DNA of 64,000 bases from Patescibacteria group bacterium (GCA_024654575.1 JANLHG010000005.1:65260-129259), one strand, 5' to 3'. Shown: positions 1-63,476, counted from the first letter of the stretch. The notes: generated by a model not told the origin, from the sequence alone. Numbers and translations are program-made.

Positions 1-895
1 TTCCCAATCCAATACCATAACACCCCATCACCACTACTTTTTTCTCTCCATTTTCATCTTGATAAGTAAGGTCCAACGCTTCTGAAAATCTTGTACCCAA
101 ATTAAATATATTTCCAACTTCCACCGCTTTATCTTGTTTCAAATCTTTATTAGTACATATCGGACAAGCTATCTCTTCACCTTTTATTTCAGCATTAACG
201 GCAATATGACATTTTTCACAAATATGAATAATGTCTTCTCCAGCTGATGTTGTTGTCTGGAACTCATGAGAATATTTCGAAAATATTCCACCAGAAGCAT
301 GTGTAATGTATGTTTTTTCACCGATACCCATTCTGTTAAAAATATTCACATACGCCTGTTTGGCTTTTTCATAAAATTCCGCATGAGACTTTTCATCTTT
401 TGAAAATGAATATAAATCCTTCATCAAAAACTCTCTACCTCGCATTATCCCACTTTTAGCTCTTGCTTCATTTCTAAATTTTGTTTGAATTTGATATGTG
501 TAAACAGGCAAATCTCTCCACGAACGAATATAGTCCCGCATCAATGCTGTCAATTCTTCTTCGTGAGTGGAACCAAGTCCGATTTCAGTTCCATTTTTAA
601 GTTTTGTTTTGAACCAATTATCCACTTTTCCATCATCCCATCTATCTGTTTTTTCCCAAAGATTTTTATCTTGTAAAACCGTTAAAAAAATTTCTTGCCC
701 ACCAATAGCATTCATTTCGTGGCGAATAATATTACTTATTTTATTCATCACTCTCAAACCAAGTGGTAAAAAAGAATAGACCCCAGCCATTTCTTTATGA
801 ATATAACCGGCTCTTATTAATAACTGAGCATTTAAAGCCACCTCGTCTTTAGGCGCTTCCTTTCTAGTTTTTGTAAATAATTTAGACTGCAACAT
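1..895 (-). CDS. proS: Prolyl-tRNA synthetase (class II), N-terminal ~298 aa; 3' end runs off window start
   Basis: Reverse-strand translation from ATG at 895..893: MLQSKLFTKTRKEAPKDEVALNAQLLIRAGYIHKEMAGVYSFLPLGLRV...LGSTHEEELTALMRDYIRSWRDLPVYTYQIQTKFRNEARAKSGIMRGREFLMKDLYSF..SHEFQ; colinear with bacterial ProRS motifs 1/2. Not in ORF track because no stop within window. Confidence 0.85.
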   Translation of the reverse strand, partial: MLQSKLFTKTRKEAPKDEVALNAQLLIRAGYIHKEMAGVYSFLPLGLRVMNKISNIIRHEMNAIGGQEIFLTVLQDKNLWEKTDRWDDGKVDNWFKTKLKNGTEIGLGSTHEEELTALMRDYIRSWRDLPVYTYQIQTKFRNEARAKSGIMRGREFLMKDLYSFSKDEKSHAEFYEKAKQAYVNIFNRMGIGEKTYITHASGGIFSKYSHEFQTTTSAGEDIIHICEKCHIAVNAEIKGEEIACPICTNKDLKQDKAVEVGNIFNLGTRFSEALDLTYQDENGEKKVVVMGCYGIGLG

Positions 896-910
896 AGGTG
901 TATTATACAC

Positions 911-2023
911 TTATTGCACCAATTTCAAAATATCTCTATAAGTAACGACTATCATAAGTAAGATAAGCAAAGCAAAGCCAATCATATTGAGTAAATTAGC
1001 GATTTGTGGCGGAATTTCTTTTCTACGTATTGCTTCTATAAGCACAAACAGGAGTCGTCCCCCATCAAGCGCAGGAAAAGGAATCAAATTTATAATAGCC
1101 AGATTAATTGAAATAATTGCAGTAAAACTCAAAAGATAAGAAAAACCGAGTTTTGTGGCATCACCAACTAGACCAACAATTCCCACAGGACCAGATATTG
1201 ATGAGAAATTAGCACTACCAGTAAAGATCTGGTAAATAAAATTACCTAAACCCATACTCACACCAACTATCATATGCCCAGTTAAACGAGCTCCTTCCCA
1301 AACAGCCGTCTGTAACGGCAAGTGTAAAGTTCCTACATCATCCATAGCAATACCTATAGCTACCCTACCTTCCACAATCCCGTTTTTCGGCATAACAGTT
1401 TTTTTGATTGTCTCCCCATTTCTTTCTAATGTTAAAATCAAATTTTTATTAGTATGAGATGAAATAAATCCTTGAATGGCTTCAACATTCACCGCCATCC
1501 CGCGAATTTCATCTTTTGTCACATCATCTTGAATTGAAACGATAGCATCTCCAGCTTTTATTCCCACTATATCCGCCGGTGTGTCTTTATTCACTCCGAT
1601 TACAGCAGTATGTGGATTGACAAAATTATCTCCGTATTTAGCATAATCAGAAGATGAAGCCAAAATACCTGTCATAAAAGAAAAAGAAATGAGAATCCAC
1701 GCAAAAAGAAGATTAAAAGCAATTCCAGCTATTAAAACTGAAGCTTGAATCATTCTGTTTTTATTCACAAAACTTCTACTACTATCTGGACCAGTCGTTG
1801 ATTCAGCATCTGGATTTTCACCAAAAATTTTTACGAACCCTCCGAAAGGAATCCAGTTTAAAGAATAAGTCGTTTCTCCATATTTTTTACTCCAAATTCT
1901 AGGCGGAAAACCTAAACCAAATTCATCAACTCTAATTCCAGATTTTTTAGCAACTATAAAATGGCCGAATTCATGCACTAAAATAAGCGCTGCCAAAATG
2001 ATTAAAAATATTATTATAGACAT
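911..2023 (-). CDS. rseP: RIP zinc metalloprotease RseP/site-2 protease (HEFGH motif, PDZ domain, NxxPxxxLDGG motif)
   Basis: HEFGHFIVAK zinc motif near N-term, central PDZ-like segment, C-terminal NLIPFPALDGGR motif; 4 TM segments. Confidence 0.85.
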   Translation of the reverse strand: MSIIIFLIILAALILVHEFGHFIVAKKSGIRVDEFGLGFPPRIWSKKYGETTYSLNWIPFGGFVKIFGENPDAESTTGPDSSRSFVNKNRMIQASVLIAGIAFNLLFAWILISFSFMTGILASSSDYAKYGDNFVNPHTAVIGVNKDTPADIVGIKAGDAIVSIQDDVTKDEIRGMAVNVEAIQGFISSHTNKNLILTLERNGETIKKTVMPKNGIVEGRVAIGIAMDDVGTLHLPLQTAVWEGARLTGHMIVGVSMGLGNFIYQIFTGSANFSSISGPVGIVGLVGDATKLGFSYLLSFTAIISINLAIINLIPFPALDGGRLLFVLIEAIRRKEIPPQIANLLNMIGFALLILLMIVVTYRDILKLVQ

Positions 2024-4567: not shown

Positions 4568-5689
4568 CTATTCTTCAATATCTGGTTTATCAATAGCTAT
4601 TGTCTCCATTTCTTGTGAGATTCCCGTTATACGTAATACATCTTTGTCTATTTTTTTAAATTCTTTGTTTGAATTATTAAAATGACTAACGACTGTTCCC
4701 AGTGAAGTGCCTAATTTTTTATGATAATCTTCAAAACTTTTCAAGTGTTTACCTAGTTGTTCTACTCTAACAATAATATCTTTTGCCGTTTCTTCAATCT
4801 GAAGAGCTTTAAGACCTTGAAGAACTGTTTGCAAAAAAGCCAGAAAAGAAGTTGGCGAAACAATAAGGACATGTTTTTCTTTAAATGCATACTCAATTAA
4901 ATCACGAGTATTTATTTTTACTCCCCCTACTTGAGCGACCAATAAATCATAATAAATTGCTTCGTGCGGAATAAACATAAAAGCAAAATCCATAGTACCT
5001 TCTGCTGGTTTTACATATTTTGCCGTTTCATCAATTCGCCCTTTTAAATCGTTTTTAAAAGCTTTTTCCAATCGCTCTCGTTCTGTTGGATCTTTTTCTT
5101 CAACTAATCTATTATAATTCTCAAGAGAAAATTTTGAATCAATAGGAATAATTTTTTCTTTAACAAAAACTACTGCGTCTACAATTGTTCCATCAGTAAA
5201 TGGATATTGCATTTGATAGCTACCCGGAGGCAAAACATTTTTTAATAATGTTTCTAAATAATATTCACCTAAAATCCCTCGTTGTTTCGGATTCTTCAAA
5301 ATATCTTGCAAATTTTGCAACTGGTCAGCAAAAGAAACCACTTGGCGATTTGTTTCATCAAGTTTTGTCAAACCTTGAGTGACTTCTTTTATCAGTTTTT
5401 GTGATTCTGAAAATTGTCGATGAACAGCATCACCCATATCACGAGCTGTTTGACCCATTTTAGTATCAACAGTTCTGGCTAAATCATTTACTTGTTGAAG
5501 AATAAGTTTAAAACCGGTATCATCTTGTTTAGGTAATTCTTTTTTTCCACGACTAAAAAGCAGATAGACTAATACCAGATTAACAATAAAAAGAATGATA
5601 ATAAAGAAAGTAATTGTATCCACAGACACAATTATATCAGAATATGCTATAATATAAACATGTCTCTTTATAATGATATAAAAAACCAA
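4568..5689 (-). CDS. rmuC: DNA recombination protein RmuC
   Basis: N-terminal TM + long coiled coil + C-terminal RmuC-type nuclease-like domain (DFAFMFIPHEAIYYDLL). True start is probably GTG at 5623/5629, which would avoid a 30-bp head-on overlap with the divergent gene at 5660. Confidence 0.7.
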   Translation of the reverse strand: MVFYIIIKRHVYIIAYSDIIVSVDTITFFIIILFIVNLVLVYLLFSRGKKELPKQDDTGFKLILQQVNDLARTVDTKMGQTARDMGDAVHRQFSESQKLIKEVTQGLTKLDETNRQVVSFADQLQNLQDILKNPKQRGILGEYYLETLLKNVLPPGSYQMQYPFTDGTIVDAVVFVKEKIIPIDSKFSLENYNRLVEEKDPTERERLEKAFKNDLKGRIDETAKYVKPAEGTMDFAFMFIPHEAIYYDLLVAQVGGVKINTRDLIEYAFKEKHVLIVSPTSFLAFLQTVLQGLKALQIEETAKDIIVRVEQLGKHLKSFEDYHKKLGTSLGTVVSHFNNSNKEFKKIDKDVLRITGISQEMETIAIDKPDIEE

Positions 5690-6109
5690 ATAAAAGACGC
5701 CATGCGTGCTAGAGATGCGATTAGACTAAATGCTCTACGCAACCTTGCTGCTGGATTACAAACAGAACTTATAGCCAAAAAAACCACTGACGTTGAATTG
5801 AAAGATGACGAAACTCTAGCGGTGATAAGACGTTTAGTTAAACAACGAAAAGATTCTATTGAACAATTTACCAAAGGTGGACGCGATGATTTAGTTAATG
5901 ATGAAAAAGCTGAATTAGCGATACTTGAAACATATCTACCCGCAATGATGAATCAAGAAGATATTAAAAAAATTGCTGAAGCTAAAAAAACAGAACTAGG
6001 AGTAACTGACAAAACAAAAACTGGTATTCTCATGTCGGTAATAATGAAAGAATTGAAAGGTAAAGCTGATGGAGCTGATGTTAAAGCAGTAGTGGAAAGT
6101 TTATTTTAG
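5660..6109 (+). CDS. GatB/YqeY domain-containing protein
   Basis: 149 aa; IKDAMRARDAIRLNALRNLAAGLQTELIAKK...LETYLP pattern typical of YqeY; TATAAT 6 nt upstream of ATG. Confidence 0.7.
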   Translation: MSLYNDIKNQIKDAMRARDAIRLNALRNLAAGLQTELIAKKTTDVELKDDETLAVIRRLVKQRKDSIEQFTKGGRDDLVNDEKAELAILETYLPAMMNQEDIKKIAEAKKTELGVTDKTKTGILMSVIMKELKGKADGADVKAVVESLF

Positions 6110-61174: not shown

Positions 61175-61822
61175 ATGCTTATCATCATGAACTTAAAAAA
61201 TTTCTTTGCAAAATTGCTAGATATAGTTTTTCCTCACTCACAATCTCTTATAAATCTAGAGAATATGAGTGAGGAAGAATTGCATAAATCAGTATCTAAA
61301 CCTAGAACTATTAGTCAAGAATTAAATATAATAGCTATTTTTGACTACCAAAACAAAATTATGAAAAATATGATTTGGCAATTAAAATATCGTCAAAATA
61401 TAAAAATCGCAAAACTTTTAGCTCATTGTTTATATCAAACACTTTTAATTGAAATAAAAGAGAAGTCAATTATTATACCTATGCCGTTGTCAAAAGAAAG
61501 ATTGCGAGAAAGACAATATAATCAAATGGAACTTCTCATAAATGAACTAGAAAAAATTGATATAAACAAAATATTTGAATACTCAAATTCAATTTTATAT
61601 AAAATAAAAAACACTCCTCATCAAACCTCTGTCAAAAGTCGAGAAGAAAGAATGAAAAATTTACGTGATTGTTTTAGTATAAAAGATAGTGAAAAAATAA
61701 AAGATAGAAATATAATTTTAATAGATGATGTAACTACTACCGGCACTACTTTATCACAAGCTCGTCGCGTTTTCCTACACTCCAGTGCTAAAAAAGTTTT
61801 TTGTGTAGCTCTAGCACATTAG
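61175..61822 (+). CDS. comFC: ComF family protein (ComFC-type phosphoribosyltransferase domain)
   Basis: C-terminal PRTase motif NIILIDDVTTTGTTL; competence context adjacent to pilus genes. Confidence 0.7.
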   Translation: MLIIMNLKNFFAKLLDIVFPHSQSLINLENMSEEELHKSVSKPRTISQELNIIAIFDYQNKIMKNMIWQLKYRQNIKIAKLLAHCLYQTLLIEIKEKSIIIPMPLSKERLRERQYNQMELLINELEKIDINKIFEYSNSILYKIKNTPHQTSVKSREERMKNLRDCFSIKDSEKIKDRNIILIDDVTTTGTTLSQARRVFLHSSAKKVFCVALAH

Positions 61823-61830
61823 TGGTAAAT

Positions 61831-62600
61831 GGGGACAGCCACCATTGTTTTACATTTTGTGTGTTGTAATAATATATCTTCACTCTTTTTTCTTCGGGCG
61901 TCCTGGAGATTTTAGTGTTGAATCAAGGTGATGTTTGGAAACCATCTTTTCTACCCATTGTTCTTTTCCATATGGTACATTCTTGTTTACTGAAATGCGA
62001 ACGGTATTTAAATCATTTAGTTTTTCCTGAGTATTAATCCATTTTATATAATTGTCTGGAAGTTGAAAAGATTTTTGATCAAGTAATTTTTTCTGTTGTG
62101 CTGTCCCATGTATACGTCTCCATGTGCTTCCCCATTGCCAATCTTCACAAGAGCGGACAAGCTTTGCACGCACTGCATTGCGTTCAACATATTTAATAAC
62201 CGCAAAAAGATAGCTGTCTTTATCGATAAGAAAAGATTTGTAACGACCTTGGTACAGGTGTCCACTACCGTTTGTGTTCGTGCGTGCATGTACTTTTCGA
62301 GTGTGCGCGTTACTTAATCTGTGCATAAATAAACCAAGGTCTCCATTGTTTCTTGGATAAAGCACTAAATGAAAGTGATTTGGCATTAACTCATATGCAA
62401 GTATACGCATATCAAAAATCTCTTTCGTCTCAAGTAAAAGTTGCTCAAAGAGTCTATAATCTTCGTCTTTATTAAAAATTTGGAGACGACCATTCGCACG
62501 ATTAATTACATGATATATTTCTCCTCCGACATCAACTCTTGCATTTCGTGGCATGGTTTTATTATACCATATTATTTAGGAAACAATGGTGGCTGTCCCC
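61831..62600. mobile_element. Compact mobile element: HuH Y1 transposase gene bounded by perfect 20-bp inverted repeats (IS200/IS605- or REP/RAYT-like)
   Basis: ggggacagccaccattgttt at 61831..61850 and its exact reverse complement at 62581..62600; element GC about 42% vs about 30% background; sits exactly in the comFC-pilin intergenic gap. Confidence 0.6.
61880..62554 (-). CDS. tnpA: IS200/IS605-family-like HuH tyrosine (Y1) transposase (Transposase_17/RAYT-like)
   Basis: HuH motif LMPNHFHLVL; conserved GHLYQGRYKS and YVERNAVRAKL helix with candidate catalytic Tyr; 224 aa. Confidence 0.65.
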   Translation of the reverse strand: MPRNARVDVGGEIYHVINRANGRLQIFNKDEDYRLFEQLLLETKEIFDMRILAYELMPNHFHLVLYPRNNGDLGLFMHRLSNAHTRKVHARTNTNGSGHLYQGRYKSFLIDKDSYLFAVIKYVERNAVRAKLVRSCEDWQWGSTWRRIHGTAQQKKLLDQKSFQLPDNYIKWINTQEKLNDLNTVRISVNKNVPYGKEQWVEKMVSKHHLDSTLKSPGRPKKKE

Positions 62601-62606
62601 TTTATC

Positions 62607-63143
62607 TTACCAACAAATACCACCAGGAGAGGAAACTTTTCTAGACCAAAAACCAGCACCATCTAGGACACATGGATTAGAACCACTATCTCTTGTAGGA
62701 TCAAAAAGAGTTGGTTGCGTAAGATAGCTAAAACCCACATCTACTATATTATGATCAAGAAGTGCATAATCAGTGCCGTTAGAGATATAAAGATAACAAC
62801 TAGTACTGTTTGTCTTGTCCATAGATGGATCAGTAGGAAAGCTAGATATATATGTCGGAACAAGACCAGGAATCACATTATCTGAAGCAAAACCACCCCA
62901 GCCATTACATTCACTTCGCCAGCCCCATCCAGGATTTGGATATGATGAATTATTAGAACTATAATACATTTCCAACGCAGTTTGAATTTGTCGAATATCA
63001 GAAAGTCGTTTTGCGTCTCTAGCTTTGGCACGGGCACTACTTAAACTAGCAAGAACCACACTTGAAAGTATACCTATAATAGCAATAACAACTAGAAGCT
63101 CAATTAATGTAAACCCCCGATTATTATTTTTATATAAATTCAT
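62607..63143 (-). CDS. Type IV pilin-like protein, paralog D (larger, Trp/Gly-rich C-domain)
   Basis: NRGFTLIELLVVIAIIGILSSVVLASL prepilin motif; 178 aa. Confidence 0.7.
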   Translation of the reverse strand: MNLYKNNNRGFTLIELLVVIAIIGILSSVVLASLSSARAKARDAKRLSDIRQIQTALEMYYSSNNSSYPNPGWGWRSECNGWGGFASDNVIPGLVPTYISSFPTDPSMDKTNSTSCYLYISNGTDYALLDHNIVDVGFSYLTQPTLFDPTRDSGSNPCVLDGAGFWSRKVSSPGGICW

Positions 63144-63147
63144 AATA

Positions 63148-63441
63148 TTATCTATTATTAGGAAGATTCTGAATCGTTGTATCTAGCACATTATCCATAG
63201 TATATTTCGGTGTAAAAGTAGTTTTTCTTCCCCAACCAAAAACCAAAAACAACGAAATAACAATTGCAATAACCGCAAACGCAATCAAAACATAATTCGC
63301 TTGATTTTCATTTTTAATAATTCCACCTGAATATTTAATAACCCATTGAACCATTTTCGGTACTGGTGTTTGAGTAGACAGAGGTCGTTTAAAATTCTCG
63401 CCTTCAAATACTATTTTTGGTGACTCATTATTTTGATCCAT
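63148..63441 (-). CDS. Small membrane protein (97 aa), unknown; co-directional with pilin paralog D
   Basis: Single TM (ANYVLIAFAVIAIVISLFLVFGW). Confidence 0.35.
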   Translation of the reverse strand: MDQNNESPKIVFEGENFKRPLSTQTPVPKMVQWVIKYSGGIIKNENQANYVLIAFAVIAIVISLFLVFGWGRKTTFTPKYTMDNVLDTTIQNLPNNR

Positions 63442-63476
63442 GCTACAATTTTACCACATAACCATATATTTATAAC

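Follow-up and report, generated by a model that had tools for sequence, protein, structure and literature searches.

An intact TIRtron between comFC and a prepilin gene in a Patescibacteria genome, and its wider family

Introduction

What is the compact element that separates a ComF-family gene from a prepilin gene in a Patescibacteria group bacterium, and is it mobile? We analysed a 64-kb stretch of this genome (64,000 nucleotides; GCA_024654575.1, JANLHG010000005.1:65260-129259), referred to here as the window, with positions counted from its first nucleotide. A first-pass annotation, made from the sequence alone, had described a transposase gene between perfect inverted repeats at this locus, likened it to a RAYT arrangement and left it as either a recent insertion or a domesticated RAYT.

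RAYT-like genes that lie between long terminal inverted repeats, rather than between REPs, have been named TIRtrons, and their proteins TIRYTs (Di Nocera 2013, BMC Genomics 14:522, PMC3733652). Many TIRtron repeats share the outer motif GGGGWSAS, and the repeat families are moderately abundant, with single, dimeric or grouped copies (PMC3733652). In a classification of TnpA-Y1 proteins, 20 of 26 TIRYTs were assigned to subclass 2.1 (Quentin et al. 2018, PMC6006769), which corresponds to RAYT group 1 of Bertels et al. 2017 (PMC6006769). Subclass 2.1 proteins have a median length of 238 aa and a helix-turn-helix-like C-terminus (Bac_DnaA_C, HTH_23 or HTH_28). Their signatures are NHVH/NH[YF]H, W[EQ]/FQ, one of YIELNP, Y[IV]ELNP or Y[IV]HLNP, and SS after the core (PMC6006769 Table 1). 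RAYTs in general have housekeeping-like distributions (PMC5581495), and groups 1 and 6 are among the most IS-like, with duplicates and plasmid copies (Bertels et al., PMC5581495). No experimental work on any TIRYT was found in the literature that uses the term.

Here we report that the window locus is a genuine, intact TIRtron, and hence a member of an already named class rather than a new system. The earlier description of the arrangement as RAYT-like was essentially right; this exact arrangement already carries a name (PMC3733652, PMC6006769).

Results

A single TIRYT gene lies between inverted ends

We identified a TIRtron at 61828-62603 (minus strand), delimited by its inverted repeat and by comparison with 18 like-built elements in related genomes. 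Measured from GGGG to CCCC, the element comprises 770 bp (61831-62600). The window contains the 20-mer GGGGACAGCCACCATTGTTT at two places only, 61831-61850 (+) and 62581-62600 (−). These two arms are exact inverted copies 730 nt apart, as the first-pass annotation had stated. A third copy is absent from the window even when up to three mismatches are tolerated, and the 20-mer had no match in 100 shuffles.

Around these cores, an imperfect inverted repeat spans 45 nt (61828-61872 and 62559-62603, 76% complementary). The gene-distal (3'-side) terminal inverted repeat has its exact core at 61831-61850 (+), from which the weaker repeat runs on to 61872 (..TTTTGTGTGTTGTAATAA). At the gene-proximal (5'-side) terminal inverted repeat, the core at 62581-62600 (−) is followed by a weaker repeat that extends inward to 62559. 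Both ends begin with GGGGACAG, which fits the published GGGGWSAS motif. Beside each end is an A/T-rich trinucleotide (AAT and AAA, read 5' to 3' toward GGGG) that may be part of the TIRtron end. The DNA abutting the element reads CATTAGTGGTA(AAT) on one side and TTTATCTTACC on the other.

The TIRYT gene (61880-62554, −) is an intact open reading frame that encodes a 224-aa protein with a match to the Pfam family Y1_Tnp. The outer end of the element is 46 nt upstream of its ATG, and the other repeat is 29 nt downstream of its stop codon.

The window's ends lack a REP-type GTAG tag. We also considered a REP-like hairpin inside each end (a bulged 7-bp stem, AATGGGG-ACAG-CC(A)CCATT) and found no support for it as a defining trait. 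One end alone folds weakly (−3.3 kcal/mol, z about −2), and the hairpin is not part of the predicted fold at the gene-proximal end. End variants in related sites consist of loop changes or C-to-T changes and include no compensatory pairs.

The element fills a short spacer between convergent genes

The TIRtron fills the gap between two genes, as previously annotated. On its left is a ComF-family phosphoribosyltransferase gene (comFC, 61175-61822, +) and on its right a prepilin gene (62607-63143, −; stop codon 62607-62609). The element begins 8 nt past the ComF-family stop codon and ends 6 nt short of the pilin stop codon. It is placed harmlessly, in a 14-nt spacer between two convergent gene 3' ends.

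The first-pass annotation gave the element a GC content of about 42%, above that of its surroundings. The actual value is 36.8%, compared with a window mean of 33.9% (sd 3.7%). This value is equalled or exceeded by 16% of all 770-bp windows, and the neighbouring pilin gene reaches 37.1%. Since the TIRtron falls within the spread of the window, its GC content is no evidence of foreign origin, and we discarded composition as a sign of it.

Among the relatives compared, we found no clean empty site. The closest relative found, L090, encodes a ComF protein 77% identical to that of the window, at about 80% nucleotide identity. In L090, a methyltransferase gene starts 13 nt after comFC (L090 953-967). 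The window contains 1.65 kb of extra sequence (61823-63475) between comFC and its methyltransferase-like gene, and this segment includes the TIRtron, the prepilin gene (62607-63143) and a 97-aa membrane-protein open reading frame (63148-63441). Because L090 lacks all three together, it does not provide a clean empty site.

A preference for pilus loci was considered and rejected, as only the window, L029 and L039 have pilin genes nearby, about the number expected by chance among ~60 loci. L039, a Taylorbacteria contig, carries pilus genes 72-74% identical to those of the window (468-1740). Between two of its pilin genes are a truncated, degraded TIRYT gene (66% identity) and a gene for a second, distinct Y1 paralog, which has 226 aa and includes an insertion of 26 aa. 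The position of the L039 TIRYT is not orthologous to that of the window's.

The TIRYT is a Y1 transposase with a conserved C-terminal extension

The 224-aa protein scores 57.8 bits against Pfam Y1_Tnp (cut-off 23) and contains HFHLVL at residues 60-65, consistent with the Y1 HuH transposase originally annotated. Its best NCBIfam model is REP_Tyr_transpos (REP-associated tyrosine transposase), with 68.5 bits, below the cut-off of 80. The NCBIfam IS200 model gives 16.2 bits against a cut-off of 55. The HuH core is formed by H60-F-H62, and the tyrosine motif is YVERN (Y122 to N126), with Y122 the presumed catalytic tyrosine. H60, H62, Y122 and N126 are invariant among 44 homologs.

The only solved sequence relative found is E. 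coli TnpA_REP (4ER8, E 0.017). In this alignment, HFH is opposite HMH and YVERNA is opposite YIYINP. An AlphaFold model of the TIRYT built from 44 homologs (pLDDT 80.8, pTM 0.80) has 4ER8 as its top fold match in Foldseek (E 6e-8, TM 0.71 normalised to target). The next matches are the ISDra2, IS200 and IS608 TnpA structures. The nearest solved relative is 4ER8 and not a rolling-circle replication protein, and the first-pass annotation was right to class the protein with the Y1 HuH transposases.

The model further contains a helical C-terminal extension (residues about 143-208). At the C-terminus, an invariant G218-R219-P220 is followed by basic residues. Even at E<=10, Pfam yields no match for the last 90 residues, and resemblance to Bac_DnaA_C, HTH_23 or HTH_28 could not be detected in this part of the protein. 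The SPGRPKKKE ending (61880-61897, residues 218-224) resembles an AT-hook core, and a GRP(K/R) ending is also found in distant plasmid and Planctomycetota homologs.

A leaderless transcript probably starts at the gene-proximal end

An extended −10 promoter-like element, TGGTATAAT (62561-62569, −), can be read from the sequence of the gene-proximal end and terminates 6 nt upstream of the ATG (62554-62552). No Shine-Dalgarno sequence is visible before the TIRYT ATG. Most of the 18 aligned elements have a −10-like hexamer 6-8 nt ahead of the ATG. These features together make a leaderless transcript likely, and the TIRYT mRNA is probably leaderless and made from its own extended −10 promoter. A generic promoter scan did not report TGGTATAAT, because it has no −35 element.

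The inner part of the gene-distal end (61851-61872, +; TTTTGTGTGTTGTAATA) mirrors its promoter-bearing counterpart at the gene-proximal end and contains a weak, inward-facing −10-like TGTAAT preceded by TG, and an antisense promoter at this position is conceivable.

Homologs form a large family with uniform ends

We identified 2086 TIRYT homologs at E<=1e-5. The best 120 of these are all 68-86% identical to the window TIRYT and 209-243 aa long. Where the source gives a name, these 120 are all from Patescibacteria (Nomura-, Kaiser- and Yonathbacteria, Minisyncoccia). An exhaustive search returned 27,421 representative clusters at E<=1e-3, 265 of them at E<=1e-30; the wider family is therefore very large.

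The construction of the element is highly uniform. The exact 20-mer adjoins the TIRYT gene in all nine of the loci fetched first. The 18 full elements share one layout, with lengths of 748-775 bp except for one 853-bp element that contains Ns. Their outer end is 46-49 nt from the ATG, and the other end begins 8-38 nt past the stop codon (the element with Ns excepted). Nearly all of them have both ends unchanged over the first 16-20 nt. At the 3' ends, the first 16 nt are near-identical, with at most two mismatches.

Between the window gene and five homologs of equal length, 54-72% of synonymous sites and 9-15% of non-synonymous sites differ (dN/dS about 0.1). Judged from these alignments, synonymous sites in the TIRYT gene are nearly saturated. 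The low dN/dS, together with ends that are invariant despite this synonymous divergence, implies that protein and ends are both under purifying selection. As the ends are invariant across elements with 54-72% synonymous differences, the perfect repeats of the window copy say nothing about how recently it was inserted.

Several observations bear on mobility. Nine loci fetched via three homologs have entirely different neighbouring genes, and one identical protein (P0010) is found in two distinct contexts. At loci that share a host-gene homolog with the window, TIRYT identity is 74-81%, compared with 37-69% for the host proteins. For the ComF neighbour, identity has already fallen to ~40% at the tenth-best match. 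The excess of TIRYT identity over that of host proteins suggests that the gene spreads horizontally or is exceptionally constrained. Many homologs are on contigs of ~1 kb or at contig ends, as is typical of repeats. In one MAG, two contigs with unrelated flanks each end inside a copy, and another genome contains three full or fragmentary copies that are 92-98% identical in nucleotide sequence. Carriage by phages was considered and rejected, as the end sequence had no match among 2.9 million viral contigs.

Most of the end sites listed lack the TIRYT gene

We scanned one genome per species with the end sequence GGGGACAGCCACCATTNTTT and identified at least 80 stretches that contain it. Most of these are from Patescibacteria and a few are from other phyla. 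Full elements were detected by tblastn in 14 of the 80 stretches listed, and most sites are gene-less. The first-pass annotation had raised REP-like dispersion of the 20-mer: within the window this fails, with only the two flanking copies present, and in related genomes it is borne out. In several genomes, sites are found on three to five separate contigs.

Sites without the gene comprise single ends, inverted doublets with a spacing of 35-100 bp, direct arrays and a miniature element of 117 bp. As single strands, the doublets fold into hairpins (−24 to −34 kcal/mol, z about −9 to −10). The miniature consists of two ends joined by about 20 nt. It is present in MAG CAYPFT01 in five copies with unrelated flanks (L011 185-300, L011 1773-1888, L014 4754-4865, L024 3533-3651 and L071 6902-7017), and similarity among these copies starts and stops exactly at GGGG...CCCC. 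A target-site duplication was also sought, and we rejected it. The flanking A/T-rich trinucleotides are mostly inverted (AAT...ATT) and in some miniatures direct (AAT...AAT), with nothing consistent.

One 55-nt inverted end doublet (L029 5446-5500) lies in frame inside a 279-aa prepilin-peptidase-like open reading frame (4970-5809). It inserts about 18 residues (..GTATIVLYHAKQWWLSP..) and leaves the frame intact.

The identical 16-mer GGGGACAGCCACCATT was also observed in high-GC genomes (L063 7600-7675, L066 246-330 and L087 6100-6187). It forms a hairpin doublet in a 629-kb alphaproteobacterial contig with 71% GC, and in two Acidobacteriota contigs (66-68% GC) it adjoins GGGGACAGCC...GGCTGTCCCC hairpins. 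Since these genomes belong to other phyla, the end sequence is conserved well beyond Patescibacteria.

A further feature of the sites is the recurrence of terminus-like sequence outside the ends. GGGGAC is found within 80 nt outside the end at 49 of 156 sites, against an expectation of 0.009 per site. Outside many ends are nested direct copies of the terminus, truncated after 4 to >100 nt, and each copy restarts at the same short flank followed by GGGG (for example gattaaaGGGGACAGCCACCATA / gattaaaGGGGG / gattaaaGGGGACAG...). Such copies are present at L001 2056-2270, L008 10698-10830, L067 2737-2800, L046 1226-1300, L005 9871-9973 and L050 4814-4943, and the copy in L005 takes in the first 10 codons. 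The window's TIRtron has no nested terminus copies. Our guess is that nested truncated ends arise from repeated abortive copying or template switching.

Discussion

A horizontally spreading transposon is the best explanation

The locus is best explained as one intact TIRtron that is, most probably, a selfish, horizontally spreading single-strand DNA transposon, with ends that are the sites of its enzyme. The first-pass annotation suggested, as one of two alternatives, a domesticated RAYT. On this account, a vertically inherited RAYT-type gene is kept for a host function and maintains dispersed repeats, in a REPIN-RAYT-like manner, while itself immobile. Strong purifying selection (dN/dS about 0.1), the one copy in the window, gene-less hairpin doublets of the same ends in related genomes and the housekeeping-like distributions of RAYTs generally (PMC5581495) are all in keeping with such a gene. 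We nevertheless consider domestication unlikely. Some genomes contain several near-identical copies and 3' fragments, miniatures occur in related genomes, and many homologs are on ~1 kb contigs or at contig ends. The position of the gene is not syntenic between lineages, and TIRYT identity exceeds that of the host proteins compared at the same loci. Moreover, group 1 is, with group 6, among the most IS-like RAYTs (PMC5581495).

It is much less probable still that the locus is an ordinary IS200/IS605 insertion sequence, encoding TnpA only, with ends that are similar by chance. With 16 bits, the protein stays well below the cut-off of the NCBIfam IS200 model (55), and its tyrosine motif has N in place of Q at the last position (Y-x-x-x-N for Y-x-x-x-Q; PMC6006769 Table 1), so the annotators were justified in not calling the element a canonical IS200/IS605 member. 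At 224 aa, with its conserved C-terminal extension, the protein is longer than the core alone (about 150 aa), and in place of dissimilar subterminal hairpins on one strand the element has true inverted repeats at its ends. These differences outweigh the affinities to that family, namely the match to Pfam Y1_Tnp, which is the IS200-like family, and the significant fold similarity to IS200/IS605 TnpA structures. It is scarcely credible that the locus is what remains of a rolling-circle plasmid or phage, comprising a Rep or relaxase-type HuH protein and origin repeats. The HuH motif is common to such proteins, but no Rep or relaxase family was matched, and all fold and sequence relatives are Y1 transposases. 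In addition, the end sequence has 0 matches in 2.9 million viral contigs, and the context is chromosomal, between housekeeping and pilus genes.

A proposed mechanism acts on single-stranded DNA

For the TIRtron read as a transposon, a mechanism can be inferred by homology with E. coli TnpA_REP and the IS608/ISDra2 TnpA proteins. The mobile unit would be the single TIRYT gene with two inverted ends of ~45 bp, in which the outer 20 bp (GGGGACAGCCACCATTGTTT) would serve as conserved recognition and cleavage sites. The substrate of the HuH/Tyr enzyme would be single-stranded DNA, with the lagging-strand template as the likeliest source. In single-stranded form, the inverted ends could pair to form a panhandle in the full element or a hairpin in short derivatives. 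The enzyme would nick at the GGGG/CCCC boundaries via a 5'-phosphotyrosine on Y122, with H60 and H62 binding the metal. Strands would then be rejoined such that the segment is excised or copied and inserted elsewhere without target duplication. Any DNA between two ends would be mobilised in this way, which would explain the gene-less doublets and 117-bp miniatures in related genomes.

Several points run counter to this reading. With inverted ends, the same sequence lies on opposite strands, an arrangement with no simple counterpart in the same-strand cleavage of IS608. The 64-kb window contains only the two flanking end copies, and no empty site was found among the relatives compared. The hairpin within one end is weak, and the protein deviates from the published subclass 2.1 signatures and has a C-terminal part unmatched in Pfam.

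A more speculative possibility, itself rather unlikely, is that the Patescibacteria TIRtron clade transposes by a replicative, template-switching route rather than by simple single-strand cut-and-paste. Nested truncated ends, present at about a third of sites, would result if initiation at the nick recurred and copying was then aborted. If this is true, the nested arrays would be a natural record of TIRYT reaction intermediates.

As annotation, the single copy in the window carries little weight. Its relatives show that TIRtrons, earlier catalogued in a few cultivated phyla, make up a very large and uniform family in Patescibacteria, one that is apparently spreading horizontally. With their invariant 20 bp, nearly saturated synonymous sites in the gene between them and miniature non-autonomous derivatives, the ends represent a defined candidate substrate for the first TIRYT biochemistry. 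The TIRtron could also serve as a practical marker of assembly breaks and strain variation in the genomes of these organisms.

Comparison with known systems

The window element closely resembles published TIRtrons, which likewise have a single RAYT-like Y1 gene at fixed short distances from long inverted repeats that fit GGGGWSAS. TIRtron repeats are also found elsewhere in a genome as single, dimeric or grouped copies. This holds for related genomes, whereas the 64-kb window has only the two flanking copies. Published TIRtrons are from Proteobacteria, Acidobacteria and others, not from Patescibacteria. In the Patescibacteria clade, 16-20 nt of the ends are invariant across a very large clade, compared with 8 in published TIRtrons. 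Neither nested truncated ends nor an in-frame intragenic doublet is described by Di Nocera (2013).

The protein is probably a member of subclass 2.1. It resembles this subclass in size (224 aa, with 238 aa the subclass median), in its NH[YF]H motif (here NHFH) and in a conserved serine after the core. It too has a conserved C-terminal extension, in which the helix-turn-helix-like similarity of the subclass was not detected. The two also share the lack of GTAG-type REPs and the presence of IS-like duplicates. The window TIRYT differs in having LYQ for LW[EQ]/FQ, YVERNA for Y[IV]ELNP and WGS for WSS, which, at the level of sequence, are conservative variants of the subclass 2.1 signatures. Full-length alignments of the window TIRYT with proteins bearing every subclass 2.1 signature show 27-30% identity. 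A homolog on a P. aeruginosa plasmid (28.6% identity over 99% of the query) has NHVH, LWE, YIELNP and WSS, and its gene is flanked by perfect 32-bp repeats (AAAGGGGACAGATTT...) with the motif GGGGACAG. A homolog on an Iodobacter plasmid is flanked by 26-bp repeats that contain GGGGTCAG. The full-length alignment of the window protein with the P. aeruginosa, Iodobacter and Sedimentisphaerales homologs includes a C-terminal ...G..(F/W)......GRP block.

E. coli TnpA_REP and its REPtron (4ER8; subclass 2.2, RAYT group 2) represent the best solved relative by both structure and sequence. As in the window, the REPtron gene is flanked by inverted copies of its cognate repeats, and dispersed pairs form hairpins (REPIN-like). 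Unlike the REPtron, the window family has no GT[AG]G-tagged palindromic REPs, and a single end contains no strong palindrome. The window TIRYT has an extra C-terminal domain relative to TnpA_REP and scores below the REP_Tyr_transpos cut-off. Repeat numbers in the window family look tens of times lower than those of the REPtron.

The TnpA proteins of the IS200/IS605 family (IS608, ISDra2) share with the TIRYT a Y1 HuH fold and a single catalytic tyrosine. By analogy, the chemistry is presumably common to both, with single-strand cleavage and rejoining and no target duplication. IS200/IS605 proteins have a Y---Q motif and a ~150-aa core, whereas the window TIRYT has Y---N and 224 aa. Finally, IS200/IS605 elements end in differing subterminal hairpins on one strand, and the window TIRtron ends in inverted copies of one sequence.
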